64,000 bases of DNA from an uncultured Elusimicrobiaceae bacterium (GCA_964415175.1 CAYPYG010000001.1:17975-81974), one strand, 5' to 3'; counted from the first letter of the stretch, positions 2,252-20,788 are shown. Program-made: numbers and translations. Notes: generated from the sequence alone by a model not told the origin.

Positions 2252-2644
2252 ATGCGGGATATTGAAATAACTTTTCCCGGCGGCAAAAAAGTCGCGGCTG
2301 GATTCGACGGCTTCGAGATAATGACCGACCAGCCGGCGGCGGCGGGAGGCGAGGGCTCGGCGCCCTCGCCTTTCGACCTCTTCCTGGCTTCGCTGGGCAC
2401 CTGCGCCGGCATCTTCGTGCTGGGCTTCCTGCGGTCCAGGGGCCTCGCGACGGAAGGGCTGAGGATAATACAGTCGGTGGACTGGGACCCGGCCGCGCAC
2501 CGGCTGAGGAAGGTCTCGTTCAGGGTGGTATTGCCGTCCGGCTTCCCCGGGAAATACAGGGGCGCGGTGGTAAAGGCCGCCGAGCAGTGCCTGGTAAAGC
2601 GCACGCTTCACGACCCGCCGGAATTCGAGATAACGGCCGGCTAG
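2252..2644 (+). CDS. OsmC/Ohr family protein
   Basis: GEGSAPSPFDLFLASLGTCAGIF motif. GGGAGG lies 6 nt upstream of ATG 2252; the track start at 2213 is an alternative. Confidence 0.75.
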   Translation: MRDIEITFPGGKKVAAGFDGFEIMTDQPAAAGGEGSAPSPFDLFLASLGTCAGIFVLGFLRSRGLATEGLRIIQSVDWDPAAHRLRKVSFRVVLPSGFPGKYRGAVVKAAEQCLVKRTLHDPPEFEITAG

Positions 2645-3681
2645 ACTTTTATCTTGGCTATGGCCAGGCTGACCAGGACGAACTCCCCCCCGACGACGAA
2701 ATAGATCAGCGCTCCCCATTCCAGCGAGACCTGCGTCACGAGGAAAGCCGCGACGGAAAGGGCCGCCGCGGTGAGGGCCGATATCGAGACCACCCGGCGG
2801 CGCGAGAAGCCCAGGGCCTCAAGCCGCAGCGCGTAATGGTCCTTGCTGCCCAGGAAAGGGGAATGCCCCCGCCTCAGGCGCATCACGGAGACGAAAAGAG
2901 TGTCGTAGATGGGCAGAGCCAGTATGAACAGCGGGGCGTAGACGCCCAGGGGGTTGAGGTTGGTATAGCTCGTGCCCATGGCTATGACGGCCAGCGTGTA
3001 GCCGCAGAAGAGACTGCCCGAGTCCCCCATGAAGATCTTCAGCCGCCTGGAAAAATTGTAGGGCAGGAACCCCAGCGCCGCTCCGCAAAGGGCCGCCGAC
3101 GCGAAATTGACGTAGATGGACTCCGACGGCAGCGCTATCAGCAGGAAACCGGCCGCGGCCAGCGCCGCCTGGCTGGCCGAAAGGCCGTCCATGATGTCTA
3201 TGATGTTGAAAGCGTTGGAGACCCCGACTATCCAGAGCACGCTCAGGGCCGCGGCCAGGTAGCCCGGCTGAAGGAAGTCTATCCGTATCCCGTAAAAGAC
3301 CGTGAAGAAGGCCACGGCGGCCTGGACCGCGAACTTCGTCCTGACACCGAGGCCGTGAGGCTTTTTCAGGTCGTCGATCAGGCCGAGCAGCAGCATGACG
3401 GCCCCGCCGGTGAGCAGTATCCTCAGGTCGCGGAGCGTGCCCGTAGGGAAGTCGGTAAGGAAGCGCACGGTTATCAGCGAGGCGGCGAAGGCGGCCGCCA
3501 CCGCCACGCCGCCCAGCAGCGGCGTCGCCACTTTATGGGTCTTAACGTGAGTGGAGGGCGCGTCCAGGTGGCCGAACCTCACCGCCAGCGCCCGCAGGAG
3601 CGGGGTCAGGGAAAGGGAAAGCAGCAGCGCGCCCAGGAAACAGGCGAGGTAAAGGTAGAAATTCTGGACCAGGGCTTCCAT
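2641..3681 (-). CDS. Polyprenyl-phosphate HexNAc-1-phosphate transferase (WecA/MraY family, GT4)
   Basis: About 10 TM helices with NAFNIIDIMDGL and FMGDSGSLF motifs. The ATG at 3681 overlaps the upstream stop (ATGA). The longer 543-aa track ORF is an artefactual extension. Confidence 0.85.
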   Translation of the reverse strand: MEALVQNFYLYLACFLGALLLSLSLTPLLRALAVRFGHLDAPSTHVKTHKVATPLLGGVAVAAAFAASLITVRFLTDFPTGTLRDLRILLTGGAVMLLLGLIDDLKKPHGLGVRTKFAVQAAVAFFTVFYGIRIDFLQPGYLAAALSVLWIVGVSNAFNIIDIMDGLSASQAALAAAGFLLIALPSESIYVNFASAALCGAALGFLPYNFSRRLKIFMGDSGSLFCGYTLAVIAMGTSYTNLNPLGVYAPLFILALPIYDTLFVSVMRLRRGHSPFLGSKDHYALRLEALGFSRRRVVSISALTAAALSVAAFLVTQVSLEWGALIYFVVGGEFVLVSLAIAKIKV

Positions 3682-4406
3682 CAGCGGGACCGGGGAGGGA
3701 AGGAGCTTGGGCGCAGCGACAGGCGCAGCCGGAGTATCTTCAGCACGCCCTTCACCGCGTCGCGGAAATCTATCTTTTTCCCCTCCTCCCGCGAACGGGG
3801 CGAATAGGCGATGGGCACCTCCAGGAAACGGAGCCCGAGGAAAGCCGTCTTGCAGGAGAGTTCGGCCTCTATCTCGAAACCCGTCGAGACAAGGCCGAAG
3901 CGGCGCAGTTCCGCGGCGCGGAAAGCCTTGTAGCAGGTGTAGGAATCCGTCATCCGCACGCCGAACAGGACCGAGATCAGGAAGGAGAGGAACCTGTTGC
4001 CGGCCAGGTAGAGACGGCTGTAGGTCCTGACGCCGGAGGAGAGCATGCGCGAGCCGAAGACGGCGTCGGCGCGGCCCTCGGCTACGGGCCGCACCACCTC
4101 CGCTATCTGCAGGGGGTCGTACTCCAGGTCCGCGTCCTGTACGATCACGGCTTCGCCCGCCGCGGCTCCGAAACCGGTTATGAGCGCGCCGCCCTTGCCG
4201 CGGTTCCGCTCGTGCTTTATCAGCCTCAATTCGTAGGGGAAACGCCGCTCCGCGATAGCCCCGTCCAGCCATTCCCTGGAGCCGTCGGACGACCCGTCGT
4301 CGACCACCACCACTTCCTTGTCGATAGGGAGGGCCTTGAGCCTTTCCAGGACCGCGGGCAGGGTCCGCATCTCGTTATAGGAGGGTATTATGATGGAAAC
4401 TTTCAT
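3681..4406 (-). CDS. Family 2 glycosyltransferase, ArnC/GtrB/DPM1-like (polyprenol-phosphate sugar synthase type)
   Basis: MKVSIIIPSYNE...VVDDGSSDGS...QDADLE motifs; clear paralog of 7361-8068. Confidence 0.8.
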   Translation of the reverse strand: MKVSIIIPSYNEMRTLPAVLERLKALPIDKEVVVVDDGSSDGSREWLDGAIAERRFPYELRLIKHERNRGKGGALITGFGAAAGEAVIVQDADLEYDPLQIAEVVRPVAEGRADAVFGSRMLSSGVRTYSRLYLAGNRFLSFLISVLFGVRMTDSYTCYKAFRAAELRRFGLVSTGFEIEAELSCKTAFLGLRFLEVPIAYSPRSREEGKKIDFRDAVKGVLKILRLRLSLRPSSFPPRSR

Positions 4407-4512
4407 TATGGGGCCCGGCGGCTCGCGGGAGATTCAATTATACAATAAAGACCCTTTTTTTATAGAATTAGGGCTCGGGCGGCGGAAAAGCCGCCCCACG
4501 GAGGCGAAACCG

Positions 4513-5643
4513 ATGAAAGTTCCCATGGTAGACATGCTCGCGGGCTATCCCCCCATACGCGAAGAGATAGAGAACGCGGTCAAGGCCGTGTTCAACAAGG
4601 CCAATTTCATACTGGGCGAAGAAGTAAAGAAGTTCGAGGCCGAGTTCGCCGCCCATAACGGCGCCAAATACTGCGTGGGCGTGGCCAACGGCACCGACGC
4701 CCTGCGCATGGCCTATATAGCCAGCGGCATCAAGGCCGGAGACGAGGTCATCACCTCCCCCTTCACCTTCATCGCCACCTCCGAGACCATCTCCCAGATC
4801 GGCGCGGTCCCCGTGTTCGCCGACATCGACCCCGTCACCTTCAACCTCGACCCGAAGTCGGTCGAGAAGAAGATAACGAAGAAAACGAAGGCCATCGTCC
4901 CCGTCCACCTCTACGGCCTCCCCTGCGACATGGACGCTTTAATGGCGCTGGCCAGGAAGCATGACCTTATCGTCGTGGAGGACACCGCGCAGGCTTTCAC
5001 CGGCAAGTACAAACCGGCGGGCGGCGACTGGAAATACCTCGGCACGCTGGGACACTGCGGCACCTACAGCTTCTTCCCGGCCAAGAACCTCGGCGCCTTC
5101 GGCGACGGCGGCGCGGTGGTCACCAACGACCAGAAGATCTACGACACGCTGATCCAGCTGCGCAATCACGGCAGCAAGGTGCGCTACCATCACGAGATGG
5201 AGGGTTTCAACAGCCGCCTCGACACCGTGCAGGCGGCCGTCCTGTCCATCCGCCTGAAGCACGTGGAGAAGTGGACCGAGATGCGCAACAAGGTGGCCGC
5301 CGGGTACGCGAAAGCCCTCGAGGGCGTCTGCGTGACCCCGGTCGTCCCGGCCAATGCCCGCCACTCGTTCAACTACTACACGATACGCTTCGACTCCAAG
5401 GCCAAGCGCGACAACGCGCAGAAGCACCTGACGGAGCAGGGGATAGCCAACCAGATCTACTATCCCATAGCCCTGCACCTGCAGGAGGCTTATAAGCACC
5501 TGGGCGGCAAGCGCGGGGATTTGCCCGTCTGCGACGCCGTGATGGACACCGTCTTCTCGCTGCCCATGTACCCGGAACTCAGCGACGAACAGATAAAGAC
5601 GGTCACCGACGCGGTAAAAGCGTCGCTCAAGGCCGCGGTCTGA
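4513..5643 (+). CDS. DegT/DnrJ/EryC1/StrS family sugar aminotransferase
   Basis: Whole-length family resemblance (GAKYCVGVANGTDAL, FFPAKNLGAFGDGGA). GGAGG lies upstream of ATG 4513; the track start 4390 is an extension. Confidence 0.85.
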   Translation: MKVPMVDMLAGYPPIREEIENAVKAVFNKANFILGEEVKKFEAEFAAHNGAKYCVGVANGTDALRMAYIASGIKAGDEVITSPFTFIATSETISQIGAVPVFADIDPVTFNLDPKSVEKKITKKTKAIVPVHLYGLPCDMDALMALARKHDLIVVEDTAQAFTGKYKPAGGDWKYLGTLGHCGTYSFFPAKNLGAFGDGGAVVTNDQKIYDTLIQLRNHGSKVRYHHEMEGFNSRLDTVQAAVLSIRLKHVEKWTEMRNKVAAGYAKALEGVCVTPVVPANARHSFNYYTIRFDSKAKRDNAQKHLTEQGIANQIYYPIALHLQEAYKHLGGKRGDLPVCDAVMDTVFSLPMYPELSDEQIKTVTDAVKASLKAAV

Positions 5644-5653
5644 GGCCCGGCCG

Positions 5654-6643
5654 ATGAACTGGCGCGGAAGCAGGGTACTCATAACCGGCGGGAGCGGCTT
5701 CATAGGGAGCCACCTCACGGAAAGGCTGGTCAGGCTGGGGGCCAGGGTGACCGCCCTGCTGGAATACACCCCCTACAACGACCTCGGCGCGCTCAAGCAC
5801 GCGCCGCGGCAGCTGCTCTCGCAGATCGAGTTCGTGCCGGGCGACCTGCGCGACCCGGAGATGGTGAAGAAACTGCTCAGGAAGAAGGACGTGGTCTTCC
5901 ACCTCGGGGCACTGGTGGGGATCCCGTACTCCTACGTGAACCCGCGCGAAGTGTTCGAGGTCAACGCCCTGGGTACGCTCAACGTGCTGCTGGCCGCGCG
6001 CGACGCCGGCGCCAGCAAGGTCGTCACCACCTCCACCTCCGAGGTCTACGGCACCGCCCTCTACACCCCGATAGACGAGAAGCACCCGCTGCAGGCCCAG
6101 TCCCCCTACTCCGCCAGCAAGATAGCGGCCGACAAGATAGCGGAGTCCTTCAACCGCACCTACGGGCTGCCGGTGGCGGTCATACGGCCCTTCAACACCT
6201 ACGGTCCCCGCCAGTCGGACAGGGCGATAATCCCGACCATCATCGCCCAGGCCCTTACGAAGCGGACGGTCAAGCTGGGCGCCCTCGCCCCGCGCAGGGA
6301 CCTCAACTACGTGGCGGACACGGTGGACGGCTTCGTAAAGACCGCCGAATCGCCGCGCGCGGTGGGCAGGGTGATAAACATAGGCACCGGGCGCGATATC
6401 TCCGTCGGGGAGCTGGCGGCCGAGATACTGCGGCTGATGGGCCGCAAGGTCAGGATAGAGACGACGAGCGCGCGGAAGCGCCCGAAGGCCAGCGAGGTGA
6501 TGCAGCTGCTCTGCGACAACTCCCTGGCGGCCGGCCTGATAGGCTGGAAGCCGCGCACCACGCTCGAAAGCGGCCTGAAGCAGACCATCGACTGGATAAA
6601 GTCGCACTCGGAAGGCTACAGCCCGGACAAGTACAATATCTGA
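5654..6643 (+). CDS. NAD-dependent sugar epimerase/dehydratase (extended SDR)
   Basis: VLITGGSGFIGSHL Rossmann motif; YSASK catalytic motif. Confidence 0.85.
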   Translation: MNWRGSRVLITGGSGFIGSHLTERLVRLGARVTALLEYTPYNDLGALKHAPRQLLSQIEFVPGDLRDPEMVKKLLRKKDVVFHLGALVGIPYSYVNPREVFEVNALGTLNVLLAARDAGASKVVTTSTSEVYGTALYTPIDEKHPLQAQSPYSASKIAADKIAESFNRTYGLPVAVIRPFNTYGPRQSDRAIIPTIIAQALTKRTVKLGALAPRRDLNYVADTVDGFVKTAESPRAVGRVINIGTGRDISVGELAAEILRLMGRKVRIETTSARKRPKASEVMQLLCDNSLAAGLIGWKPRTTLESGLKQTIDWIKSHSEGYSPDKYNI

Positions 6644-6665
6644 AGCGGGGGAAAGGGGAACTCGG

Positions 6666-7364
6666 ATGAAAGCGGTCATAATAGCCGGCGGCTGCGGTAC
6701 CAGGCTCCGCCCTTTCACTTTCTCCATACCCAAGCCGCTCCTGCCGGTGGACGAGAAGCCGATACTGGAGCACATGGTCCTCCGCCTCAGGGCGCTGGGA
6801 ATAAAGGACATAATCCTCACCCTCGGTTACGGCGCGGAACTGATAGAGGCCTATTTCGGCGGCGGCAGGAAGTTCGGCGTCAGCATCGGCTACACGAGGG
6901 AGCGCCGCCCTCTCGGCACCGCCGGTCCGCTGAAGCTCATAAAAGGCCTGCGCGAGCCCTTCCTGGTGATGAACGGCGACATCCTCACCCGGCTGGATTT
7001 CAGGAAATTCATGACCGCCCACCGGCGCTCGGGCGCGGACCTGACCATCGCGGCGCGCAAATACTCCGACCGCCTCCCTTTCGGCACGGTCTCGGTCTCC
7101 GGCGGCAGGGTCACCGGCATAACCGAAAAACCCGTGACGGAACATCTCGTCTCGGCCGGCATCTACGCCGTCTCGCCCTGCGCCCTGCGCAGGATCCCCC
7201 GCGAGGGGGCCTTCACCATGCCGGAACTGGTGAACTCGCTGCTGGCCGCCGGCAGGCACGTCGGCATGTACGAATTCTCCGATTACTGGCTGGGGATAGA
7301 GAAGGCGTCCCAGCTGGAGGAAGCGGCGCAGGAGGCGCGCCTCCTGCGCACCCGACCCGGATGA
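6666..7364 (+). CDS. Sugar-phosphate nucleotidyltransferase
   Basis: MKAVIIAGGCGTRLRPFT signature of the NTP_transferase family. Confidence 0.8.
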   Translation: MKAVIIAGGCGTRLRPFTFSIPKPLLPVDEKPILEHMVLRLRALGIKDIILTLGYGAELIEAYFGGGRKFGVSIGYTRERRPLGTAGPLKLIKGLREPFLVMNGDILTRLDFRKFMTAHRRSGADLTIAARKYSDRLPFGTVSVSGGRVTGITEKPVTEHLVSAGIYAVSPCALRRIPREGAFTMPELVNSLLAAGRHVGMYEFSDYWLGIEKASQLEEAAQEARLLRTRPG

Positions 7365-8068
7365 AGCTTTCCGTCATAATCCCCTCCTACAACGAGGCCG
7401 CGACCGTGCGCGAGATCATCGCTCGCGTCCGCCGCGTGCCCGTGGACATGGAGAAGGAGATCATAGTGGTCGACGGCGCCTCTTCCGACGGCACCAGGGA
7501 GGCGCTGCGCGCAGAGGAGGCCGTCCCCGGCACGCGCGTCATATACGAGGAGCGCCGGGAAGGAAAGGGGGCCGCCGTGCGCAAGGGCCTCGAGGCCGCC
7601 ACGGGCGAAATCGCCCTCATACAGGACGCGGACCTGGAGGTCAGTCCCGAGGAATATCCCGCCCTGCTGCGTCCCATCCTGGACGGCGAGAGCGACGTGG
7701 TCTTCGGCTCCCGCTTCCTGGGCGGGGCCAGGTTCAGGACCGCCAGCCTGATAGCCAACCGGGTGATCATCGCCCTGACCAACCTCCTTTACGGCGCCGG
7801 CATGACCGACGTGCTCACCTGCTACAAAGTCTTCAGGCTCAGAACGCTGGAGGGGATGAGGTTCACCTGCAACGGCTTCGATTTCGATACCGAGCTGGCC
7901 GTCAGTCTCATCAGGCGCGGGGTCAGGATAAAGGAGATCCCGATAAGCTACACCCCCCGCACCTACGGCGAGGGCAAGAAGATCAACTGGAAGGACGGCT
8001 TCATGGCGGTCTGGAACGTTATCAGGCTCCGGTTCTCGCGGCGAGCGGGGAAGGCGGGACTTCCATGA
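7361..8068 (+). CDS. Family 2 glycosyltransferase, ArnC/GtrB/DPM1-like
   Basis: MKLSVIIPSYNE...QDADLE...TCYKVFR...EGKKI motifs; ATGA overlap with the upstream gene. Confidence 0.8.
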   Translation: MKLSVIIPSYNEAATVREIIARVRRVPVDMEKEIIVVDGASSDGTREALRAEEAVPGTRVIYEERREGKGAAVRKGLEAATGEIALIQDADLEVSPEEYPALLRPILDGESDVVFGSRFLGGARFRTASLIANRVIIALTNLLYGAGMTDVLTCYKVFRLRTLEGMRFTCNGFDFDTELAVSLIRRGVRIKEIPISYTPRTYGEGKKINWKDGFMAVWNVIRLRFSRRAGKAGLP

Positions 8069-9177
8069 CGAAGAACGCCCCTCCCCCCCCACTCACGCGG
8101 CGAATAGATCTGAACGTGGGCTATTCCTGCAACATCAAGTGCAGTTTCTGCTATTATCTCACCGACGTCAAGGCCCGCGACCGCGACAAGGACCTGACCA
8201 CGGAGCAGTGCAGGACCCTCATCAGGCGCCATTACGCGGAGGGACTTCGCGTGCTGGAGTTCACCGGCGGAGAGCCCACCATACGCCGCGACCTTTTCGA
8301 CCTGGTCCGCTTCGCGAAAGAGACGGGGTTCCCCAGGGTCTCGGTCATCACCAACGGCCTGAGGCTCTCCGACAAGGAATACGCCCGCGGCCTGGCGGCG
8401 GCCGGAGTGGAGGACTTTCTTTTCTCGGTGCACGGCTCCACCGCCGCCCTCCACGATTCCGTGACCAACGTCCCCGGCAGCTTCGACCGGCTCATGAAGG
8501 CCGTACGCAACGCTCAGTCCCTTGGCGCCAAGGTCCGCTGCAACTCGGTCGTCACGGGAGTCAACCTGTCGGATGTGTACGGCAGAGCGCGGCTCTTCCG
8601 GGACCTGGGCATCAAGACCGTCAATTTCATCCTCTTCAACCCCATCCAGCAGCAGACCGAGGGCGCCGACGAAAGCAACTTCCTGCGCTACTCGGACGCG
8701 GCAGCGGAACTGAAGCGGGCCATGACGGACTTCGGGCCGGACTTCGACAAGTTCACGGTCAGGTACCTGCCGTTCTGCCTGATGCCGGGTCTCGAAAGGC
8801 ACGTGCAGAACGTGCCCCAGGTCCATTACGACCACGACGAATGGGACTACTATCACCGGTCCCGAGTGCGCGAACCTCTCTGGAAATGGCTGGGCGGCCT
8901 GCTGGCCGGCGCCGCCGTACTGCCTGGCAAGCGGTTCTGGCTGTCCTGCGGCTGGGACCATTTCTGGCACGCCGCCATACTGCAGGCCCACTCACTGCTC
9001 CACAAACGCATGTTCCCCAAGTGCCGGCGCTGCTCTTTCGCCCGCATCTGCGGCGGGGTCTGGAACGAATACGCCCTCCGCTTCGGGGACTCCGAACTGA
9101 TCTCCGTCCCCGGCCCGGTCCTGGCGGAGCCCTGGCATTTCATGGACGAGTCCCAGCGCGCGGAGACCCGGCGGTGA
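8065..9177 (+). CDS. Radical SAM protein with SPASM/twitch-like C-terminal Cys cluster
   Basis: CNIKCSFC (CxxxCxxC) near the N-terminus; CRRCSFARICGG near the C-terminus; ATGA overlap upstream. Confidence 0.75.
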   Translation: MTKNAPPPPLTRRIDLNVGYSCNIKCSFCYYLTDVKARDRDKDLTTEQCRTLIRRHYAEGLRVLEFTGGEPTIRRDLFDLVRFAKETGFPRVSVITNGLRLSDKEYARGLAAAGVEDFLFSVHGSTAALHDSVTNVPGSFDRLMKAVRNAQSLGAKVRCNSVVTGVNLSDVYGRARLFRDLGIKTVNFILFNPIQQQTEGADESNFLRYSDAAAELKRAMTDFGPDFDKFTVRYLPFCLMPGLERHVQNVPQVHYDHDEWDYYHRSRVREPLWKWLGGLLAGAAVLPGKRFWLSCGWDHFWHAAILQAHSLLHKRMFPKCRRCSFARICGGVWNEYALRFGDSELISVPGPVLAEPWHFMDESQRAETRR

Positions 9178-10133
9178 CCGGCGTCTCGATAGTCATACCG
9201 GCCTACAACGCCGAGAGGACCCTCGCCCGCACGCTCGAAGCCTGCCGCGCGCAGTCCCTGCCCTGCGAGGTGGTCGTCGCCGACGACGGTTCGACCGACT
9301 CCACACCGGCCATAGCGGACCGTTTCGGGGTGAAGTACCTGCGCCAGGAGAACCGCGGCGCGGCCGCGGCCCGCAACCTCGGCTGGCGCGCCGCTTCCGG
9401 CCGCTACGTGCTTTTCACGGATTCGGACTGCGTGCCCGACAGGGACTGGGCCCTGACCCTGGTAAGGCTGCTCGACGAGGGCGCCGGGGCCGCCGGCGGC
9501 ACCTACACGCTGGCCAATCCGGAGAGCCTGACGGCGTCCTGCATCCATTACGAGATCCAGTACCGCCATGCCCGGCTGCCGCGCGAGGTCCGCTACCTCG
9601 GCTCCTTCAGCCTGGGCGCGCCCCGCGAGGTACTCGAAGCCCTGGGGGGTTTCGACGAGTCGTTCCGGATAGCCTGCGGGGAGGACTCCGACCTCACCTA
9701 CCGCATAGCCGCCTCGGGCCGGCGCCTGCTCTTCACGCGCGAGGCCCGCACTGGCCATTTCTTCCCGGAGAGCGCCCTCGGTTTCCTGCGCCAGCAGTTC
9801 TGGCGCGGCTACTGGATAATGAAGCTGGTCGCCAAACACCCCGGGCGCATCGGCAACGACGACTACAGCGGGAAGCGCGACGCCGTGCAGCCGCCGCTCT
9901 TCGCGCTCTCGGCCGTCTCGCTCCCTTTCTGCGCCGCCTTCGGCTGGATGCCGCACTGGCTCGCGCTGAACCTGGCCGCCTTCCTGCTCAACCTGCCGCC
10001 GGCCCTTTTCGCCGTGCGGGCTTCCGGTCAGGCCCGGCTGCTCTGGATGCTCCCCCTGCTCTATCTGCGGGGCTTCTGCTGGGCCGCCGGCTGCGCGGCC
10101 GGAACCGTGAAGTTCATCCTTCTGAAAAAATGA
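9174..10133 (+). CDS. Family 2 glycosyltransferase with C-terminal membrane segment
   Basis: VSIVIPAYNAE...VVADDGSTD...FTDSDC motifs. The GTG start overlaps the upstream stop (GTGA). Only the 3' third of track ORF 8139-10133 is credible. Confidence 0.75.
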   Translation: MTGVSIVIPAYNAERTLARTLEACRAQSLPCEVVVADDGSTDSTPAIADRFGVKYLRQENRGAAAARNLGWRAASGRYVLFTDSDCVPDRDWALTLVRLLDEGAGAAGGTYTLANPESLTASCIHYEIQYRHARLPREVRYLGSFSLGAPREVLEALGGFDESFRIACGEDSDLTYRIAASGRRLLFTREARTGHFFPESALGFLRQQFWRGYWIMKLVAKHPGRIGNDDYSGKRDAVQPPLFALSAVSLPFCAAFGWMPHWLALNLAAFLLNLPPALFAVRASGQARLLWMLPLLYLRGFCWAAGCAAGTVKFILLKK

Positions 10134-11776: not shown

Positions 11777-11897
11777 CGGCCCGCGGCGCCGGCCTCCCCC
11801 CTCCATCCCTATTTGATACAATCTGTTGTCCGGGACGCGCTTTTTCCGCCGCCGTCCCCGGATACCGCGATGTCGCCGGAACGATGACGGACTCCGA

Positions 11898-13352: not shown

Positions 13353-14774
13353 ATGGCGAAACTCCTCTTCCTCCAGAACATCGAGTACGAGTTCCTCGGT
13401 CCGATGTACATCTCCGCGGCCGTGAAGCGCAGGCACGCCTGCGAGCTGGCGCTGGGCGGCGGGCCCGAGGATTTCTACGCCGTCATGGAGTCGTTCAGGC
13501 CGGACGTGATAGCCTTCTCCATCATGACCGGCTCCCACCGCTGGGCCAGGGAGACGGCGAAAGCGCTGAAAGCCCGGTACCGGACGCTCTCGCTCTTCGG
13601 CGGCGCGCATCCGACCTTCTTCCCCGAGTTCGTCGAGGAGGAAGGCGTCGACGTCATCTGCAGGGGCGAGGGAGAGGACGCCGTCCTGGACCTGCTGGAC
13701 GCGCTGGACGCCGGCAAGGACATCTCCGGCATCGCCAACCTCCACGTGAAGACCGGCGGCGCAGTAACGAGGAACCCGGTGCGGCCGCTGCGCGCCGACC
13801 TCGACGAGTACCCCTTCCCTGACCGCGCGCTCTACCGCGCGCTGGGGGCCGTCGCCGACCGCAGCGTCAGGAACGTCATAACCTCGCGCGGCTGCCCCTT
13901 CCACTGCACCTTCTGCTTCGAGGACAGCATAAGGCTGCTCTACAGCGGCAAGGGCCGGCACGTGCGGGTGAGGGACCAGGACAGGGTGATAGAGGAACTG
14001 CGGGGCCTCAAGGAGGCCGGCGAGGTCCGGACCGTCTATTTCTGCGACGACGTCTTCGGGCTGGACAAGCGCTGGCTTTACGGCTTCCTCGACAGGTACA
14101 AGCGCGAGATAGGCCTCGATTTCCTCTGCCTGGCGCGGGCGGACATAATAAGCGCCAATCCCGATTACGCCCGCCGTCTCAGGGACGCCGGCTGCAGGAG
14201 CGTTTTCTTCGGCATCGAGACCGGCTCGGAGACGCTGCGCAACAAGGTCCTCGGGAAAGGCGTGAAGGACGCCGACATCTACAAGGCCGCCGCGCTGCTG
14301 CACGAAGCCGGCATCACTTTCAGGACCTACAATATCGTCGGGCTGCCGGACGAGACGCTCGAGGACGCCCTCGGGACCATCAGGATGAACGTCCGGATAA
14401 AGGCCGATTACCCCTGGTGCTCCATCTTCTCCCCCTATCCACGCACGGCCCTCACGGCCTACGCCCAGGAGCGGGGCTACCTGGAAAAGGACTTCAGCCC
14501 GGACTCCATCTCCTCCTCCTTCTTCATAGACTCCAGGCTCAGGATGCCGGACATACGCAGGCTCGAGAACCTGCACAAGTTCTTCCAGACCGCCGTGATC
14601 TGGCCCTGGACCCTGCCGCTGGTGAAACTCCTGATAAAACTGCCGCCCAACCCGCTGTTCAACCTATGGTTCGGCGCCGTATATTTTTATATATTCCTAA
14701 AGAGCGAAAAGCGGAGTTTTTTCAGGACCTGCGTCTTCGCGCTCAAGAACTACGGCCACCTCCTGAAAAAATAG
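13353..14774 (+). CDS. Cobalamin-binding-domain (class B) radical SAM protein, paralog 2, with hydrophobic C-terminal tail
   Basis: SRGCPFHCTFC motif; starts 1 nt after the preceding stop. Confidence 0.8.
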   Translation: MAKLLFLQNIEYEFLGPMYISAAVKRRHACELALGGGPEDFYAVMESFRPDVIAFSIMTGSHRWARETAKALKARYRTLSLFGGAHPTFFPEFVEEEGVDVICRGEGEDAVLDLLDALDAGKDISGIANLHVKTGGAVTRNPVRPLRADLDEYPFPDRALYRALGAVADRSVRNVITSRGCPFHCTFCFEDSIRLLYSGKGRHVRVRDQDRVIEELRGLKEAGEVRTVYFCDDVFGLDKRWLYGFLDRYKREIGLDFLCLARADIISANPDYARRLRDAGCRSVFFGIETGSETLRNKVLGKGVKDADIYKAAALLHEAGITFRTYNIVGLPDETLEDALGTIRMNVRIKADYPWCSIFSPYPRTALTAYAQERGYLEKDFSPDSISSSFFIDSRLRMPDIRRLENLHKFFQTAVIWPWTLPLVKLLIKLPPNPLFNLWFGAVYFYIFLKSEKRSFFRTCVFALKNYGHLLKK

Positions 14775-14792
14775 GCGGCGCGGGACCCGGAA

Positions 14793-15962
14793 ATGATGAA
14801 CATAAACCTCCTTAAATTCCTGGACAAGTACGCCGGCCTGCCCCTCTGCCTGCTGCTGACCGTCCTGACCCGCCTGTCCGGCCGGGAAACCCCCTCCCTG
14901 CGCGGGGAGGAGATACGCAAGACGCTGGCCATGAAGTTCTTCGGCATGGGCAGCATACTACTGCTGGCCCCGACCCTGGCGGAGTTCAGGAAGACCTATC
15001 CCGGCTCCAGGCTCGTCTTCCTTACCCTGGGCAGGAACCGGGAGATAAGCCGGGCGCTGGGACTTTTCGACGAGATCGTCACCCTGGACATAGACGGGGG
15101 CTGGGCCGCCTTCGCGGGGTCTTTCGCGTCCGTCATGCGGTACCTCTGGAAGGAACGCTTCGACCTGGTCCTGGACTTCGAGTTCTTCACCCGTTTCTCG
15201 GCGATAGTCTCGTTCTTCACTTTCGCCGGGATCAAGGTGGGCTATCACGCCTGGGAGACCTGGCGGGGCGGCATACACACCATAAGGGTCCCGTTCAACA
15301 GGTACTGGCACATAAGCGACAGCTTTTACGCCCTCGGCACCCACATAGGCCTGCCCAGAAAAGAGAAACTGGAGCCGGTCCGGCCCGTCGTGGACCAGGC
15401 GGACCGCGACGCCGTGAAAGAGCTGCTCGGGGCGGGCGGGGTCTCCGGCGCGTACGTCTGCGCCTATGTCAGCGCGGGGGACCTGAGCGTGGAACGCCGC
15501 TGGCCGGCCGACAGCTTCGCCCGCCTGCTCGGAGGCCTCCTGGAGCGCGGAGGCCCCCCTATCGTACTGACCGGGTCCGGCAAAGAGGTGCCCTATGTCC
15601 GGGAGATGCGCCGCCGGCTGAACGACCCGCGCGTGCTGGACCTCTCCGGCAGGCTTTCCGTCACGCAGCTGGCAGCCCTGCTGGAGGGCGCGGAACTCAT
15701 GATCTCCAACGACGGAGGCCCCCTCCACCTGGCCGCCGCCATGGGGACCCGCACCGTCTCCTTCTTCGGGCCGGAAACGCCGGTCATGTACGGTCCCCTG
15801 GGAGAAGGGCACTCGGTCTTCTTCAAGGGCATAGAGTGCAGCCCGTGCATAAACGTCCACGACCGCAAATCCGTGCGCTGCTACTGGACCGAGCCGAAGT
15901 GCATGCAGGCCATAGACCCGGAAGAAGTCCTCGCAGAGGTCGAAAAAAAACTCGCCAGATGA
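14793..15962 (+). CDS. Family 9 glycosyltransferase (heptosyltransferase-like)
   Basis: C-terminal LSVTQLAALLEGAELMISNDGGPLHLAAAMGTRTVSFFGP is typical of GT9. Confidence 0.8.
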   Translation: MMNINLLKFLDKYAGLPLCLLLTVLTRLSGRETPSLRGEEIRKTLAMKFFGMGSILLLAPTLAEFRKTYPGSRLVFLTLGRNREISRALGLFDEIVTLDIDGGWAAFAGSFASVMRYLWKERFDLVLDFEFFTRFSAIVSFFTFAGIKVGYHAWETWRGGIHTIRVPFNRYWHISDSFYALGTHIGLPRKEKLEPVRPVVDQADRDAVKELLGAGGVSGAYVCAYVSAGDLSVERRWPADSFARLLGGLLERGGPPIVLTGSGKEVPYVREMRRRLNDPRVLDLSGRLSVTQLAALLEGAELMISNDGGPLHLAAAMGTRTVSFFGPETPVMYGPLGEGHSVFFKGIECSPCINVHDRKSVRCYWTEPKCMQAIDPEEVLAEVEKKLAR

Positions 15963-17356
15963 AAAAAGTACTCCTGCTCAACCCTCCCGGCGAACGCCTC
16001 TACATCCGCGACTATTTCTGCAGCAAGGTCTCACAGGCCGACTACCTGACCCACCCGGTGGACTTCGTCGTCCTGAGCGGCATACTGGCCGGCGAGTACG
16101 AGGTCGGGCTCGTCGACGCCATCGCCGAGAAGCTTTCGCCCGAAAGGGCGCTGGAGGCGATACGCCGCTTCGACCCCTTCGCCGTGATCTGCCTGTTCGG
16201 CTCGGTCAGCCTGCCCGAGGACCTGGCCTTCGCGGCCAGGGTACGGTCGGCCTGCCCGGACGCCAGGCTGGTGGGAATAGGCGACGTTTTCCGCGAAGGC
16301 GGCGGCAAATACCTCGGCCCGGCGTCCCCCCTCGACGCCCTGCTCCTCGATTTCGCCGCCCCGGACATCCTCTCCTACCTGAGAGGCGATCCCGCGTCGG
16401 CGGCCAATATGCTGATACGCTCGGGGAGCGAAGTACTTCCTCTCCGGCAGGGGACCCCCGGTCCCCGCTTCGAGATACCGGTGCCCCGCCACGAACTCTT
16501 CTCCGGCCGCGGTTACCGCCACCCTTTCGTCAGGAGCAGGCGCTTCGCCACCGTGCTGACCGATTACGGCTGCCCTTTCCACTGCAGCTTCTGCGTGATG
16601 GGCACGCTGGGCTTCAGGTCCCGCGCGCCGGAGTCCGTCATGGCGGAACTGGAGCATATCAGAAGCCTGGGGATCACCGAGGTGCTCTTCCACACCCAGA
16701 CCTTCGGCGCGCGGAAGGACGAGGCCAGGGAGCTCTGCCGCCTGATGATAAGCGCCGGCCTCGGGCTGGGCTGGACCTGTTTCTCCAGGGTCGACGTGGC
16801 GGACCCGGATCTGCTCTCGCTGATGCGGGAGGCCGGCTGCCATACCGTCATCTTCGGGGTGGAGTCCGGCTCCGACGAGATACTGAAGAAGTACGGCAAG
16901 GGCTACACGCGCGGACAGGTAGTGTCGGCCGTCGATCATTGCGCCGCCATAGGCATAGAGACGGTCGGGACCTTCATCCTGGGCCTCCCGGAAGAGACCC
17001 ACGCCACGATGCGGGAGACCCTGGACCTGCTGCGCGCGATAAAGCTCGATTACGCCTCCATAAACGTGGCGGTCCCGCGGATGGGGACCCCGCTAAGGGA
17101 GGAGGCCATCGCCCACGGGCTGGTGGACGGGGATTTCGCGGTGATGGACCAGTCCGGGGCGGAGGTGGCCATGGGCAGCAGGTCGCTCTCCCGGGAGGAG
17201 ATAGCGGAGTACCGCAGGCGCGCCGTCTCGGCCTTTTATTTCAATACGCGCTATATCCTCAGGCGCCTGGCCCGGGTCAGGTCGCTCTACGATCTGACGC
17301 GCCAGGTGAAGCAGGCCGCCGCCCTGGCGGCCAATACCTGGTTCGGGGAGAAATGA
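15959..17356 (+). CDS. Cobalamin-binding-domain (class B) radical SAM protein, paralog 3
   Basis: DYGCPFHCSFC motif. ATG 15959 overlaps the GT9 stop (ATGA); the track start 15836 is an extension. Confidence 0.8.
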   Translation: MKKVLLLNPPGERLYIRDYFCSKVSQADYLTHPVDFVVLSGILAGEYEVGLVDAIAEKLSPERALEAIRRFDPFAVICLFGSVSLPEDLAFAARVRSACPDARLVGIGDVFREGGGKYLGPASPLDALLLDFAAPDILSYLRGDPASAANMLIRSGSEVLPLRQGTPGPRFEIPVPRHELFSGRGYRHPFVRSRRFATVLTDYGCPFHCSFCVMGTLGFRSRAPESVMAELEHIRSLGITEVLFHTQTFGARKDEARELCRLMISAGLGLGWTCFSRVDVADPDLLSLMREAGCHTVIFGVESGSDEILKKYGKGYTRGQVVSAVDHCAAIGIETVGTFILGLPEETHATMRETLDLLRAIKLDYASINVAVPRMGTPLREEAIAHGLVDGDFAVMDQSGAEVAMGSRSLSREEIAEYRRRAVSAFYFNTRYILRRLARVRSLYDLTRQVKQAAALAANTWFGEK

Positions 17357-17357
17357 G

Positions 17358-18569
17358 ATGAACGCCAGGGCCGGGCTTTACGTCTTCCTCGCCGCGCTGG
17401 CGCTGCGCCTCGGCCTGCTGTTCGGCGCGCCGTCCATACCCGAGGCCTACGAGCGCTTCGACGCCAGGGCCTACGAGGCCGTGGCGGTGAACCTGATGCG
17501 GGGCAACGGCTTCGTCGAGGCGCCGGGCCGCCCCACCGACGGCCGCCCGCCGGTCTATCCCCTGTTCCTGGCCGCGGTCTATTCGGTCACGGGCCACAGC
17601 GAATTCGCCGTGAGGCTGCTACAGTGCTTCATCGACTCGGGCAGCGCCGTCCTCCTCATGACCCTGACCGGCCTTATCTTCCCGCCCGCCGCCGCGCTGG
17701 GGGCGGGACTCCTGGCGGCGGCCTACCCGCCGTTCATACTTTACAGCAACGTGCGCCTGACCGAATGTCTTTTCATGTTCCTTTTCCTCTGGGAATGCCT
17801 GCTGCTGACCAGGGCCTTCAGGGAGGGAGACAACCGCAGGTTCGCCCTGGCCGGCATACTGCACGGCGTCGCCGTCCTCGTCAGGGCGCCGACGCTGCTT
17901 TTCCCCCTCTTCCTGCTGCCCGTCGTGCTCTTCAAACGCTTCCGCGGCCTGCTGAAGGGGTTCGTCCTTTACGCGGTGATAAGCACCGCCCTGATATCCG
18001 TCTGGACGGTGCGCAACTATTACGCCCACGGCGGCTTCCTGGCGGTCAATACCGGCAGCGGCTGGCTGATGTGGTACGCCATACAGGACGACGCCTGGGA
18101 CGGCGACAGGATACGGGAGCTCAGCCCGCTGCGCGAATACCCGGAGCTGGCGGGGCTGCCCCGCCACGAGATGGAGAGCATAGTCGGCAGGAAGGTGATG
18201 AAGTACGCGCTCACCCATCCCGTCGATTATTCGCTGAAACTGGCCCGGAACTTCCGCCGCCTGTGGACCCTCCCGATAGGCAAAGTGATGATCTCCGATA
18301 TCTCACCGCTCTACGGCGCGCTCTACCAGGCGGCCCATTACCTCCTGCTCGCCGCGGCCCTCTGCGGGTTCTTCCTGGTCACGAAGTCGAATATCATCCC
18401 CCTCCTGCCCGCGCTGCTCTACCTGGCCTACGTCTCGCTCATGCACAGCGTGATCCTCGGTACCCCCAGGTACCGCCTGCCCTACGATCACTTCATGCTC
18501 ATGTTCTGCGCCGCCGGGCTGGTCTTCCTCCGCGGCGCCGCCGGGAAACCGAAGGGGACCGCCAGGTGA
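17358..18569 (+). CDS. Polytopic GT-C glycosyltransferase (ArnT / PMT_2-like), second copy
   Basis: About 10 TM helices; N-terminal region resembles ArnT/PMT_2-family enzymes. Confidence 0.65.
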   Translation: MNARAGLYVFLAALALRLGLLFGAPSIPEAYERFDARAYEAVAVNLMRGNGFVEAPGRPTDGRPPVYPLFLAAVYSVTGHSEFAVRLLQCFIDSGSAVLLMTLTGLIFPPAAALGAGLLAAAYPPFILYSNVRLTECLFMFLFLWECLLLTRAFREGDNRRFALAGILHGVAVLVRAPTLLFPLFLLPVVLFKRFRGLLKGFVLYAVISTALISVWTVRNYYAHGGFLAVNTGSGWLMWYAIQDDAWDGDRIRELSPLREYPELAGLPRHEMESIVGRKVMKYALTHPVDYSLKLARNFRRLWTLPIGKVMISDISPLYGALYQAAHYLLLAAALCGFFLVTKSNIIPLLPALLYLAYVSLMHSVILGTPRYRLPYDHFMLMFCAAGLVFLRGAAGKPKGTAR

Positions 18570-19429
18570 ACTGCCCGGTCTGCGGGTCCGGTCCGCTGAA
18601 GAGGGGCCGCGCGCTGGGCGCCGGCTTCCTGCACTCCTGCCTGTCCTGCACCGCGCGCTTCATAAGCCCGCAGCCGACGGACGCGGAGCTCAAGGACATG
18701 TACGGCGAGGGCTATTACGGCTCCTGGGGCCTCTCCGGCGGCGGGGAGCAGGACGCGCTCAAGGCCATGAAGACCGCCACCTTCGGGCTCCGGCTGGACC
18801 TGATCTCCCGTTATAAGACGGCCGGCGACATACTCGACGTGGGCTGCGCCACCGGCTTTTTCATGGAGGCCGCCGAGAAAAGGGGCTTCCGCGCCTACGG
18901 CGTCGAGATCTCCGATTATTCCAGCGCGGCGGCCGCGGCCAAGTTCGGCGCCGGAAGGGTGCACCACGGCGTCCTGGAGGACTGCCCTTTCCCGGAAAAG
19001 AGTTTCGACGCCATCGCGATGTCCGACCTGCTGGAGCACGTGCGGGACCCGCTGCGCACGCTGGCCGCCGCGCGCAGGCTGCTCCGGGACGACGGCATGA
19101 TCATGATAATGACGCCGGACACCGGTTCGCTCACGGCCAGGCTGATGGGCGCGAGATGGACGCACTACAAGCCGGAGCACCTGTTCTACTTCAACAGGCG
19201 CTCCCTCTCGCTGCTGGCGAAGAAGTCCGGCTTCGAGGCCGTGCGCTTCGAGGCCGCCCGGAAGGCGATGAACCTGGAGTACCTGCGCACCCAGTTCGCG
19301 GCTTATCCTCACCCGCTCCTCACCCCGGCCAGCGCCCTCCTGGCGCGGATAACGCCGCGCGGAGCGAGGTCCGGCAATTTTTTCCTGACCATGGGGGAGA
19401 TGACGGCCGTACTGCGGCCCTCGAGCTGA
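18566..19429 (+). CDS. Class I SAM-dependent methyltransferase with N-terminal Cys4 zinc-ribbon-like motif
   Basis: CPVCGS...CLSC motif; ILDVGCATGFF SAM motif I. The GTG start overlaps the upstream stop (GTGA). Confidence 0.75.
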   Translation: MNCPVCGSGPLKRGRALGAGFLHSCLSCTARFISPQPTDAELKDMYGEGYYGSWGLSGGGEQDALKAMKTATFGLRLDLISRYKTAGDILDVGCATGFFMEAAEKRGFRAYGVEISDYSSAAAAAKFGAGRVHHGVLEDCPFPEKSFDAIAMSDLLEHVRDPLRTLAAARRLLRDDGMIMIMTPDTGSLTARLMGARWTHYKPEHLFYFNRRSLSLLAKKSGFEAVRFEAARKAMNLEYLRTQFAAYPHPLLTPASALLARITPRGARSGNFFLTMGEMTAVLRPSS

Positions 19430-19465
19430 AGGACCCGGCGCCGTTCCCGGCGCGAAAATGATAGT

Positions 19466-19474
19466 TGCTATAAT
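19466..19474 (+). promoter_or_regulatory. Extended -10 box TGCTATAAT, 9 nt upstream of ATG 19484
   Basis: Consensus TGnTATAAT in an AT-rich gap; no Shine-Dalgarno sequence. Confidence 0.4.
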
Positions 19475-19483
19475 ATCCTCCCG

Positions 19484-20788
19484 ATGATAAGGACCGACAC
19501 GCTGATCATAGGCGGCGGCCTGGCCGGTCTTTCGGCCGCCAGGGAGCTCAGGGGCCGGAAAAAGGTGTTCCTGGCCGAACGCGAGGCGCGTTACGGCGGC
19601 CTGGCCGCGACCATACGCAAAGGCGGCTTCCATTTCGACTATTCCGGGCACCTGCTCCACCTGCGCTGGCCGGAGACGACCAGGCTCATTCTCGGCGCCC
19701 TCGGCTCCAATGTCCGCCGGCTGCGGCGCGACGCGCGCGTCTTCGCGCACGGCCGCTGGACCCCTTTCCCTTTCCAGGCCAATCTCGCCGGCATGCCTCC
19801 CGCGGTGCGTTCGGAGTGCGTGCGGGGTTTCCTGGCGGCCCGCGCGGCCGGCGGCGGCGCGCCCGGCGACGGGAGCGAGACCTTCGAGAAATGGAGCCGC
19901 CGCGTCCTGGGCGACGGCATCTCAAGGCACTTCATGCTGCCCTACAACGCCAAGCTCTGGCAGTACCCGCTGGACCGGCTCACTACCGAATGGTGCGCGC
20001 CTTTCGTGCCGGTCCCTTCCCCCGCCGAGATACTCAAGGGCGCCTACGGCCGGTCCAGGCCCGGCCTGGGCTACAACGCCGTCTTCCACTACCCGCGAAA
20101 GGGAGGCATCGGCGCGCTGGCCGCCGCCCTGGCCCTCGGGACCTCCGGCACGCATCTCGGCATCGAGGTGGAGAAAGTGGACCTGCGCGCCCGGAAAGCC
20201 CGGGTGCGGCACTTCGGGGAGGTCCGTTTCCGCCGGCTCATAAACACGGCGCCGCTCGACGAATTCGTGGCCCTGTGCGCCGACGCGCCGGCCGCCGTGC
20301 GCCGCGCCGCGGCGCGGCTGCGGCGCAACACCGTCTACGTGCTGAACCTGGGCTTCAGGGAACCGGCGCCCGCCATGCACTGGGGCTATTTCCCCGGCGC
20401 GGCCTTCCCCTTCTACCGGGCCGGGGTCTCCGGCAATTTCTCCCCCTTCCTGTCGCCGGCCGGGCGCTCCTCCTTCTACATAGAGATAGCCACCGACGGC
20501 CGCCCGCTGGACCTGGTATCCGCGGAGCGGGCCTGCGTGAAAGGACTGCTGGCCTGCGGGATGCTGAAGGACGCCGGACGGATCGAGGAGCGGCTCTGGC
20601 TCAAGATCCCCTGCGCCTACGTCGTCTACGACGCGGACAGGGCGGCGGCGCTGCCGGTACTGCGCGGCTGGCTCAGGGAGCGGAAGGCCCGCTCCATCGG
20701 CAGGTACGGCGGCTGGAAATATTCCTTCATGGAAGAAAGCGTGAAGGAAGGGCTGGAGGCCGCGCGGGAGATCGCCGCGGGCCTCTGA
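19484..20788 (+). CDS. FAD-dependent oxidoreductase (amine oxidase / UDP-galactopyranose mutase-like superfamily)
   Basis: LIIGGGLAGLSAA dinucleotide-binding motif; C-terminal GRYGGWKY resembles the Glf/amine oxidase family. Confidence 0.7.
   Translation: MIRTDTLIIGGGLAGLSAARELRGRKKVFLAEREARYGGLAATIRKGGFHFDYSGHLLHLRWPETTRLILGALGSNVRRLRRDARVFAHGRWTPFPFQANLAGMPPAVRSECVRGFLAARAAGGGAPGDGSETFEKWSRRVLGDGISRHFMLPYNAKLWQYPLDRLTTEWCAPFVPVPSPAEILKGAYGRSRPGLGYNAVFHYPRKGGIGALAAALALGTSGTHLGIEVEKVDLRARKARVRHFGEVRFRRLINTAPLDEFVALCADAPAAVRRAAARLRRNTVYVLNLGFREPAPAMHWGYFPGAAFPFYRAGVSGNFSPFLSPAGRSSFYIEIATDGRPLDLVSAERACVKGLLACGMLKDAGRIEERLWLKIPCAYVVYDADRAAALPVLRGWLRERKARSIGRYGGWKYSFMEESVKEGLEAAREIAAGL

Follow-up and report, generated by a model that had tools for sequence, protein, structure and literature searches.

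What does a bacterium make with a set of glycan genes among which four radical S-adenosylmethionine (SAM) enzymes are encoded? The question is raised by a gene cluster at positions 2641-20788 of a stretch of 64,000 nucleotides (GCA_964415175.1, CAYPYG010000001.1:17975-81974; the window) from an uncultured Elusimicrobiaceae bacterium. On balance we lean towards the view that this is a chromosomal locus for assembly or decoration of an envelope glycan in a diderm, Elusimicrobia-like bacterium, working with polyprenyl carriers and with tailoring by radical SAM enzymes; the product is probably a previously undescribed surface sugar. The enzyme families, the tight translational coupling of the genes and the two-cassette composition of the cluster are directly observed. 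Judged by sequence comparison, the cluster combines two recurrent cassettes, R2 (around the radical SAM gene rSAM_C) and R1 (around the gene pair rSAM1-GT2c). A preliminary description of the window had proposed a functionally linked glycan cluster with a nucleotide amino-sugar branch, GT2 enzymes of the polyprenyl-phosphate type and GT-C transferases. This proposal stands, and every enzyme family named in it was recovered with Pfam in a search that covered all 16 genes (g01-g16). Unless stated otherwise, coordinates are those of the window and genes lie on the plus strand.

Gene organization

The organization is that of one operon of 14 genes and a divergent two-gene unit (g01-g02), as already described; an independent gene call on an identical public contig gave the same 16 genes, the sequence being represented on public MAG (metagenome-assembled genome) and metagenome contigs, and in the window, which has a G+C content of about 65%, the codon-position GC bias delimits a clean gene set. 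Six junctions in the operon are start-stop overlaps of 4 nt, with ATGA at 7361, 8065, 10130 and 15959 and GTGA at 9174 and 18566. All six are located where they had been reported, but the statement that most genes are joined in this way was a slight overstatement, since it holds for six of the 13 junctions. Eleven of the 13 measure at most 22 nt, the exceptions being the 121 nt before g10 and the 54 nt before g16. In the divergent unit, the ATG of g01 at 3681 overlaps the stop codon of g02 as TGATG.

Conservation of two gene cassettes

Cassette R2 consists of genes for a GT-C, a small GT2, two B12-radical SAM enzymes, a GT9, an AprD4-like radical SAM enzyme (rSAM_C), a compact GT-C and a methyltransferase, and is orthologously conserved in other Elusimicrobia, in a metagenome-assembled genome (MAG) of the Deltaproteobacteria and on many metagenome contigs. 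In three genomes of named lineages, rSAM_C adjoins orthologs of B12-radical SAM enzymes A (g10) and B (g11), GT9, GT-C2 and the methyltransferase, as well as small GT2 and GT-C1-like proteins. The orthologs of g10 score 607-737 bits in loci L088, L089 and L109, and those of g11 445-841 bits in L087-L089 as well as in numerous metagenome loci; GT-C2 orthologs are found directly downstream of rSAM_C in several loci, e.g. L087, L092, L094 and L097. Locus L089 also keeps the divergent pair of aminotransferase and GT2a genes, with a GT2a ortholog of 331 bits. Within 80 metagenome loci, 56 had enough sequence upstream of rSAM_C, and a GT9-like open reading frame (ORF) was present in 44 of these; in the 37 rSAM_C loci with at least 8 kb of flanking sequence, GT9 was found in 28, a B12-radical SAM enzyme in 25 and a small GT2 in 23. 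Such synteny counts, based on stop-to-stop ORFs and phmmer best matches, are approximate and underestimate divergent families. A WecA-like gene and a homolog of g16, resembling UDP-galactopyranose mutase (UGM), occur next to each other inside rSAM_C loci L101 and L170. An extreme version of the cassette was seen on metagenome contig ERZ27253369 k141_1299816 (locus L171, 1-21380), where at least seven genes for B12-domain radical SAM proteins and one for a SPASM radical SAM protein surround GT9-rSAM_C, together with three PMT_2 GT-C genes, several methyltransferase genes and a small GT2 gene.

Cassette R1 is recognized in relatives of rSAM1 with 56-65% identity from Omnitrophota, Patescibacteria, Planctomycetota/Phycisphaerae and Anaerolineales, which have the gene order small GT2, DUF2304, rSAM1, GT2c ortholog and PMT_2-type GT-C. 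We take DUF2304 to be the family of GacJ, a small membrane protein that partners GacI (the synthase of polyprenyl-phosphate GlcNAc), and also of Rv3632, the partner of PpgS. Orthologs of GT2c (243-300 bits) adjoin rSAM1 in L005-L009 and L084-L086, and genes for B12-radical SAM enzymes, GT9 and YfhO are often nearby. In Patescibacteria, an STT3 gene and genes resembling those for pilins and type II secretion (T2SS) adjoin the cassette. By phmmer, no link was obtained between GT-C1 or GT-C2 and the GT-C genes that accompany rSAM1-GT2c in other phyla, and the glycosyltransferase neighbours are not shared by the rSAM1 homologs of 34-38% identity in Nitrosomonas and Thiocapsa. The homolog (34%) in Nitrosomonas ureae Nm13 (L038, 8707-14228) is encoded between a GFO/IDH/MocA oxidoreductase and a heparinase II/III-like protein and near a UDP-GlcNAc 2-epimerase, which is a sugar context; since this organism is cultured, it may offer a tractable entry to the chemistry of rSAM1. 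Homologs with 30-37% identity are also present on DPANN MAG contigs (L065, L073, L080, L053 and L082; Nanoarchaeota, Woesearchaeota and Pacearchaeota). They adjoin genes for GT2c-like, GT9-like and B12-radical SAM proteins, which suggests an archaeal counterpart of the rSAM1-glycosyltransferase association.

On this comparative evidence, the cluster in the window is best described as an Elusimicrobia-type cassette that carries rSAM1-GT2c between its small GT2 and GT-C1. What was earlier seen as two parallel modules is better regarded as two evolutionary cassettes, one nested in the other. Because unrelated lineages have these gene combinations as well, the arrangement is not due to chance. The nearest genome, an Elusimicrobia MAG (L004), has g01-g15 within the compared locus in the same order, with 93-98% amino acid identity, but only 82% for rSAM1. 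At the nucleotide level, identity to L004 drops to 77-83% precisely over rSAM1 (8043-9242), against about 92-98% in the flanks and 100% over 5343-6242. The pattern suggests an allele replacement confined to this gene or mosaic recombination, with strain mixing in the MAG as an alternative.

Could the radical SAM genes be unrelated neighbours, encoding cofactor, lipid or peptide-modifying enzymes that happen to lie among glycan genes? Their NCBIfam matches, all below threshold, include HpnJ, BchE, ApyD and PhpK, which would fit such an explanation. Nevertheless, we consider it highly improbable, since start-stop overlaps of 4 nt join GT2b-rSAM1-GT2c-GT-C1 and GT9-rSAM_C, no precursor-peptide-sized gene or riboswitch was found, all gaps inside the operon are at most 121 nt, and the recurrence of the same neighbourhoods across phyla contradicts it. 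The synteny analysis in fact places the radical SAM genes beside GT9, GT2 and GT-C genes across phyla, so that they can be taken as integral to the cluster. A lack of such conservation in relatives was the outcome named beforehand as one that would refute the earlier proposal, and it did not occur. A role in the synthesis of a ribosomally synthesized and post-translationally modified peptide was rejected, because the ApyD-like matches are below threshold and gaps of at most 121 nt leave no room for a precursor gene.

Radical SAM enzymes

All four proteins previously classified as radical SAM enzymes possess the CX3CX2C motif, which starts at residue 22 in rSAM1, C239 in g10 and C181 in g11. 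A SPASM domain, for which the profile PF13186 had been put forward earlier, gave no Pfam match among the cluster proteins.

The adjacent genes g10 (11898-13352) and g11 (13353-14774) encode B12-radical SAM enzymes A and B. Both have the architecture of class B radical SAM enzymes, with PF02310 and PF04055 above cut-off (B12-binding 3.4e-23 and Radical_SAM 1e-26 in g10; 8.4e-17 and 8.5e-24 in g11), and both match AprD4 and 9ccb, the B12-dependent glutamine C-methyltransferase QCMT, in the PDB (both about 6e-27 for g10). The third enzyme, rSAM_C (g13, 15959-17356), gave no Pfam match to a B12-binding domain and has a degenerate Rossmann-like domain at its N-terminus. It aligns over nearly its full length (residues 26-396) with AprD4 (6fd2, E 4.5e-27), but reached 109 bits on the AprD4 model NF033070, for which the cut-off is 500. 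The family is large, with 1353 matches at E<=1e-20; the 120 best matches have identities of 45% or more, and the named members among these 120 are mostly Elusimicrobia and Endomicrobia, with one Deltaproteobacteria MAG. HpnJ was the first or second best NCBIfam match of g10, g11 and g13, at 112-186 bits against a cut-off of 578. AprD4 is a radical SAM diol dehydratase of aminoglycoside tailoring, GenK and GenD1 are B12-dependent C-methyltransferases that act on glycosides, and HpnJ remodels an amino sugar attached to a membrane lipid, again by radical SAM chemistry.

The fourth enzyme, rSAM1 (g07, 8065-9177), represents a small distinct family that is found almost entirely in MAGs. Its AlphaFold2 model (predicted local distance difference test score, pLDDT, 92.8) matches PDB structures only in the radical SAM core, with BlsE as the best (template modelling, TM, score about 0.5) and DesII also among the PDB matches. 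The C-terminal helical domain is rich in cysteines, of which C238, C320, C323 and C329 do not vary among 33 homologs, the last three forming a CX2CX5C motif (C320-x2-C323-x5-C329); it has no good counterpart in the PDB.

An AprD4-like enzyme, B12-radical SAM enzymes, a DegT aminotransferase and a methyltransferase are also hallmarks of aminoglycoside tailoring, and the PDB matches of rSAM1, with BlsE closest and DesII as another, are enzymes of antibiotic sugars. The cluster could on these grounds be expected to produce a diffusible specialized metabolite, such as an aminoglycoside-like compound or a glycolipid natural product, instead of an envelope component. We judge this to be distinctly unlikely: WecA-like, DPM1-type GT2 and at least two polytopic GT-C genes are conserved in the cassette, Pfam detected no cyclitol synthase, resistance gene or exporter among the cluster genes, the locus is situated amid housekeeping genes, and the family of rSAM_C is spread broadly within a phylum. 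An envelope glycan remains the product that we favour.

Glycosyltransferases and lipid carriers

The divergent unit (minus strand) consists of g01 (2641-3681), a polyprenyl-phosphate sugar-1-phosphate transferase of the WecA/MraY family with about eight or more predicted transmembrane segments, and g02 (3681-4406), which encodes GT2a, a soluble GT2 of the DPM1/PpgS/GacI type. The WecA-like assignment is at family level only (Glycos_transf_4 1.6e-29; 113 bits on the WecA model with a cut-off of 326). GT2a (Pfam GT2 2.4e-31) and the product of g06, GT2b (7361-8068; 4.1e-30), a second GT2 of this type, are both without a predicted transmembrane segment and are paralogs with 43% identity (E 1e-60), as had been noticed from four shared motifs that are all visible in the alignment. 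The best NCBIfam matches of GT2a, all below cut-off, are AglJ, ArnC, dolichyl-P-hexose transferase and PpgS, and the best PDB matches of GT2b are the Pyrococcus Dol-P-Man synthase DPMS (5mlz, 8.7e-21) and ArnC (4e-15). The two proteins, both closest to DPMS, ArnC, dolichyl-P-hexose transferase and PpgS, are thus putative polyprenyl-phosphate sugar synthases at the level of the family, and the DUF2304 genes that adjoin the small GT2 gene in relatives support a role of the small GT2s as lipid-carrier sugar synthases.

A different position is taken by GT2c (g08, 9174-10133; Pfam GT2 1e-33), which appears to be anchored in the membrane by a hydrophobic C-terminal tail. In the PDB it is matched best by chondroitin synthase and GalT1, and by ArnC at 1e-5 only, so by sequence it is not ArnC- or GtrB-like. 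The GT9 enzyme (g12, 14793-15962), translationally coupled to rSAM_C, belongs to the GT9 superfamily (Pfam 3.8e-28; PDB 3tov 1e-16). It matches WaaC (8e-11) and WaaF weakly and stays below the heptosyltransferase cut-offs (III, 85.9 against 170.2 bits; II, 76.1 against 134.6).

Two polytopic enzymes of the PMT_2 family are encoded, GT-C1 (g09, 10130-11776; 6.4e-18), which has a C-terminal soluble domain, and the compact, membrane-only GT-C2 (g14, 17358-18569; 4.8e-16). Each combines GT-C family or fold with invariant acidic residues in the first external loop: D57-E58 just after the first transmembrane segment in GT-C1, and D35 at the same place in GT-C2, where W216, R219 and N220 are also invariant. 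Relatives of GT-C1 occur in rSAM_C loci L087, L089, L094 and L097 (55-161 bits). A PDB sequence search gave no match for either protein and structure prediction was therefore used, which confirmed the general GT-C fold only. The AlphaFold2 model of GT-C2 (pLDDT 92.1) has TM scores of about 0.55 to STT3, AglB and PglB and of 0.40 to ArnT, and ALG, PMT and Emb enzymes were matched as well; as modelled, GT-C2 is an enzyme of GT-C fold and not specifically ArnT-like.

Synthesis of nucleotide sugars

The first three genes of the operon encode a DegT/PseC-type sugar 4-aminotransferase (g03, 4513-5643; Pfam DegT 2e-118), a LegB-like NDP-hexose 4,6-dehydratase of the short-chain dehydrogenase/reductase (SDR) family (g04, 5654-6643), NDP standing for nucleoside diphosphate, and a sugar-1-phosphate nucleotidylyltransferase (g05, 6666-7364; NTP_transferase 8.6e-35). 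For g03, the best NCBIfam matches are PseC (244 bits), dTDP-4-amino-4,6-dideoxygalactose transaminase (230) and LegC (210), all below cut-off, and orthologs of 288-586 bits were found in L089, L105, L119 and L160. The dehydratase, in which the motifs STSEVYG and YxxxK are visible, scores 404 bits on TIGR04180 (LegB; cut-off 475), far above all other SDR models. With g05, mannose-1-P guanylyltransferase was the best match (156 bits, below cut-off). From these family relationships, g03, g04 and g05 together probably supply an NDP-4-amino-4,6-dideoxyhexose.

At the other end of the operon, g15 (18566-19429) encodes a class I SAM methyltransferase with an N-terminal CxxC...CxxC zinc ribbon (Methyltransf_23 1.1e-27; orthologs of 231-319 bits in L087 and L088). 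It is followed by g16 (19484-20788), of which the product was described earlier as a flavoprotein like Glf or an amine oxidase. Besides the Pfam Amino_oxidase domain and NCBIfam models of the PRK07208 type below cut-off, it matches the UGMs of Aspergillus (6e-42) and Trypanosoma cruzi (1e-39) over residues 6-428, so that the description can be refined to a flavoenzyme resembling eukaryote-type UGM.

Proposed pathway

A pathway that fits these enzymes would start with the conversion of a hexose-1-phosphate to an NDP-4-amino-4,6-dideoxyhexose by g05, g04 and g03, with g16 as a possible supplier of a furanose nucleotide sugar. The WecA-like g01 would prime the carrier as polyprenyl-PP-N-acetylhexosamine, and g02 and g06 would make polyprenyl-phosphate monosaccharide donors, while GT9 and the membrane-anchored GT2c may add sugars to the carrier-bound glycan at the cytoplasmic face. 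The four radical SAM enzymes and the methyltransferase would tailor carrier-bound glycosides rather than free nucleotide sugars: g10 and g11 may C-methylate unactivated carbons, the AprD4-like g13, coupled to GT9, may dehydrate a diol to give a deoxy sugar, and rSAM1 may catalyze a redox, epimerization or decarboxylation step. After transfer of the donors across the membrane by a flippase encoded elsewhere, GT-C1 and GT-C2 would transfer the sugars to a periplasmic acceptor.

Tailoring at the lipid-linked or glycoside stage is favoured because AprD4, like GenK and GenD1, acts on glycosides, because GT9 and rSAM_C are translationally coupled, and because HpnJ remodels a lipid-bound amino sugar. 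It is further favoured by the use of sugar-diversifying auxiliary enzymes in three-component GT-C systems (PMC11127046).

Several observations weigh against this interpretation, or at least against its details. None of the 16 proteins reached an NCBIfam equivalog cut-off; assignments are consequently at family level and no substrate was assigned. Among the 16 cluster genes there is none for a flippase of the GtrA, Wzx, MATE or SMR type, and the window contains neither a GtrA-like sequence nor a DUF2304 gene. No AprD3-like reductase partner was identified for rSAM_C, a role in which the SDR g04 is possible, and not every radical SAM enzyme with a B12 domain is a methyltransferase. GT-C homology between cassettes is too weak for scoring with phmmer, which makes the GT-C counts underestimates and orthology uncertain. 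Tailoring could also take place at the nucleotide-sugar stage.

We tentatively extend the proposal, as a possibility to which we give less than an even chance, to a widespread and so far undescribed tailoring layer on polyprenyl-phosphate- or polyprenyl-diphosphate-linked sugars, in which radical SAM enzymes would carry out C-methylation, AprD4-type deoxygenation and a new rSAM1 reaction before export by GT-C enzymes. With the same reserve, this layer might span Elusimicrobia and Deltaproteobacteria, with a related rSAM1 form in Omnitrophota, bacteria of the candidate phyla radiation and DPANN archaea. The periplasmic decoration systems known so far employ sugars that are completed as nucleotide sugars, or that simple epimerases or deformylases change on the lipid carrier. 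If the extension is correct, sugars would be made that nucleotide-sugar pathways cannot make. Within the cassette, the three to four radical SAM enzymes show the same degree of conservation as the glycosyltransferases, and in the relative L171 their number is at least seven. From this, surface sugars that are C-methylated or deoxygenated may be expected in major uncultured lineages. Such a role would also give functions to large radical SAM families, namely more than 1000 rSAM_C-like sequences and the distinct rSAM1 family, and extend aminoglycoside-type radical sugar chemistry into cell-envelope biology. The cluster offers concrete enzyme sets for reconstitution in vitro.

The acceptor

Genes for LptF/LptG and for an outer-membrane efflux protein are likewise present in the window, from which it follows that the organism is a diderm with a system for export of lipopolysaccharide (LPS). 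With LptF/G at hand, LPS or lipid A is a possible acceptor and the obvious candidate here. It is not specifically indicated, since lineages considered to be free of LPS also have the rSAM1 cassette and GT9-like genes. Patescibacteria, Anaerolineales and DPANN archaea are generally regarded as such.

The GT-C enzymes might instead glycosylate proteins (S-layer proteins, pilins or lipoproteins) or a non-LPS polymer. PMT_2 belongs to the protein O-mannosyltransferase superfamily, the model of GT-C2 resembles oligosaccharyltransferases (STT3, AglB and PglB) more than ArnT, and the rSAM1 cassette is found in Patescibacteria, where STT3 and pilin/T2SS-like genes are neighbours, in Anaerolineales and, more distantly, in DPANN archaea. 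However, GT-C2 lacks a periplasmic domain and a WWDYG-type region, and similarity at the level of the GT-C fold does not discriminate between acceptors. Moreover, the named loci with the rSAM_C cassette are from the diderm lineages Elusimicrobia, Endomicrobia and Deltaproteobacteria, and LptF/G is encoded in the window. We therefore regard a protein or non-LPS target as rather unlikely, and keep LPS or lipid A as a candidate acceptor.

Gene boundaries, regulation and genomic surroundings

The two transcription units are separated by an AT-rich intergenic region of 106 bp (4407-4512), which probably contains the promoters for both. The start of the aminotransferase gene at 4513, proposed earlier, is correct: a GGAGG ribosome-binding site precedes it, and the ortholog in L089 is of matching length; for g10, 11898 is the most likely start. 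A single sigma-70-like site on the plus strand (4439-4468) was found in the divergent region as a consensus match only, and promoter and terminator scans, including this region, gave match counts no higher than in shuffled sequence. Rfam detected two tRNAs only and no riboswitch or other regulatory RNA, such as a cobalamin riboswitch, in the window. A perfect TATAAT is present about 10 nt upstream of the start of g16, within the 54-nt gap after g15 (19463-19483), and could be an internal promoter or indicate a leaderless start for the UGM-like gene.

The flanks are not glycan-related, with GAF-HD and OsmC genes upstream and convergent dapA and dapF genes downstream, and the locus is surrounded by housekeeping genes (dapA, dapF, dnaE, tkt, lptFG). 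The LptF/LptG pair (34636-36839, minus strand) is divergent from an ORF of 1793 amino acids (36920-42301, plus strand) without a Pfam match at E<=1e-5, which may encode a giant envelope protein. Between 22000 and 26000 the local G+C content is 0.70-0.72, and here a TPR ORF of 784 amino acids (22489-24843, minus strand) overlaps other long ORFs and the gene of the outer-membrane efflux protein (24398-25666). Two further ORFs, of 704 amino acids (56682-58796, plus strand) and 319 amino acids (46959-47918, minus strand), have a strong coding-type GC bias at the third codon position and no Pfam match.

Comparison with known systems

A literature search yielded no description of this radical SAM-glycosyltransferase cassette, nor of a three-component glycosylation system with radical SAM enzymes. 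With such systems (GtrA/GtrB/GtrC, GacI/GacJ/GacK/GacL of group A Streptococcus, PpgS/Rv3632/Rv3779 of Mycobacterium tuberculosis and the pentofuranose systems of PMC11127046) the cluster shares the combination of a GT2 polyprenyl-phosphate sugar synthase with a GT-C, the former represented at family level by GT2a and GT2b, and its rSAM1-cassette relatives share the position of DUF2304 directly after the small GT2, as in GacJ and Rv3632. The DUF2304 family has been discussed for the GlcNAc side-chain pathway of group A Streptococcus (bioRxiv 10.1101/180810), and three-component systems are known to have auxiliary enzymes by which the sugar is diversified ahead of its transfer by the GT-C (PMC11127046). 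The cluster differs in that a dedicated flippase is not part of it and that it adds four radical SAM enzymes, a GT9, a WecA-like enzyme and a second GT-C.

The analogy with the Arn pathway, drawn in the preliminary description, is valid for the general logic, in which the amino sugar comes from an aminotransferase and an SDR, is attached to polyprenyl phosphate by a GT2 and is transferred in the periplasm by a GT-C. It fails in the details: g04 is LegB-like (404 bits, against 63 bits on ArnA), the scores for ArnB (195 against a cut-off of 631) and ArnC (62-65 against 529) are far too low, Pfam found no formyltransferase, deformylase (ArnD) or ArnE/F/SMR genes among the 16, and the model of GT-C2 is no closer to ArnT than to other GT-Cs (TM score 0.40). 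The cluster is thus not a member of the Arn pathway. A likeness to the hopanoid route of HpnI (a GT2), HpnK and HpnJ is seen in the ranking of HpnJ among the top NCBIfam matches of g10, g11 and g13, but the scores are far below the HpnJ cut-off and hopanoid genes are absent here.

With AprD4 and the tailoring of aminoglycosides, the cluster has in common the near-full-length alignment of g13 and the B12-binding plus radical SAM architecture of g10 and g11; the context is that of polyprenyl carriers and GT-C enzymes and not that of a cyclitol antibiotic, and an AprD3-like partner was not identified. The assembly of mycobacterial arabinogalactan employs WecA, Glf, GT2 galactofuranosyltransferases, decaprenyl-phosphoryl arabinose made by DprE1/E2, GT-C arabinosyltransferases and PpgS/Rv3779. 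Its tailoring depends on flavin/NADH enzymes instead of radical SAM enzymes, but in its logic, and in its logic only, it resembles the cluster, with a WecA-type primer, a UGM-type mutase, GT2s, polyprenyl-phosphate donors that are tailored on the lipid, and several GT-C enzymes.

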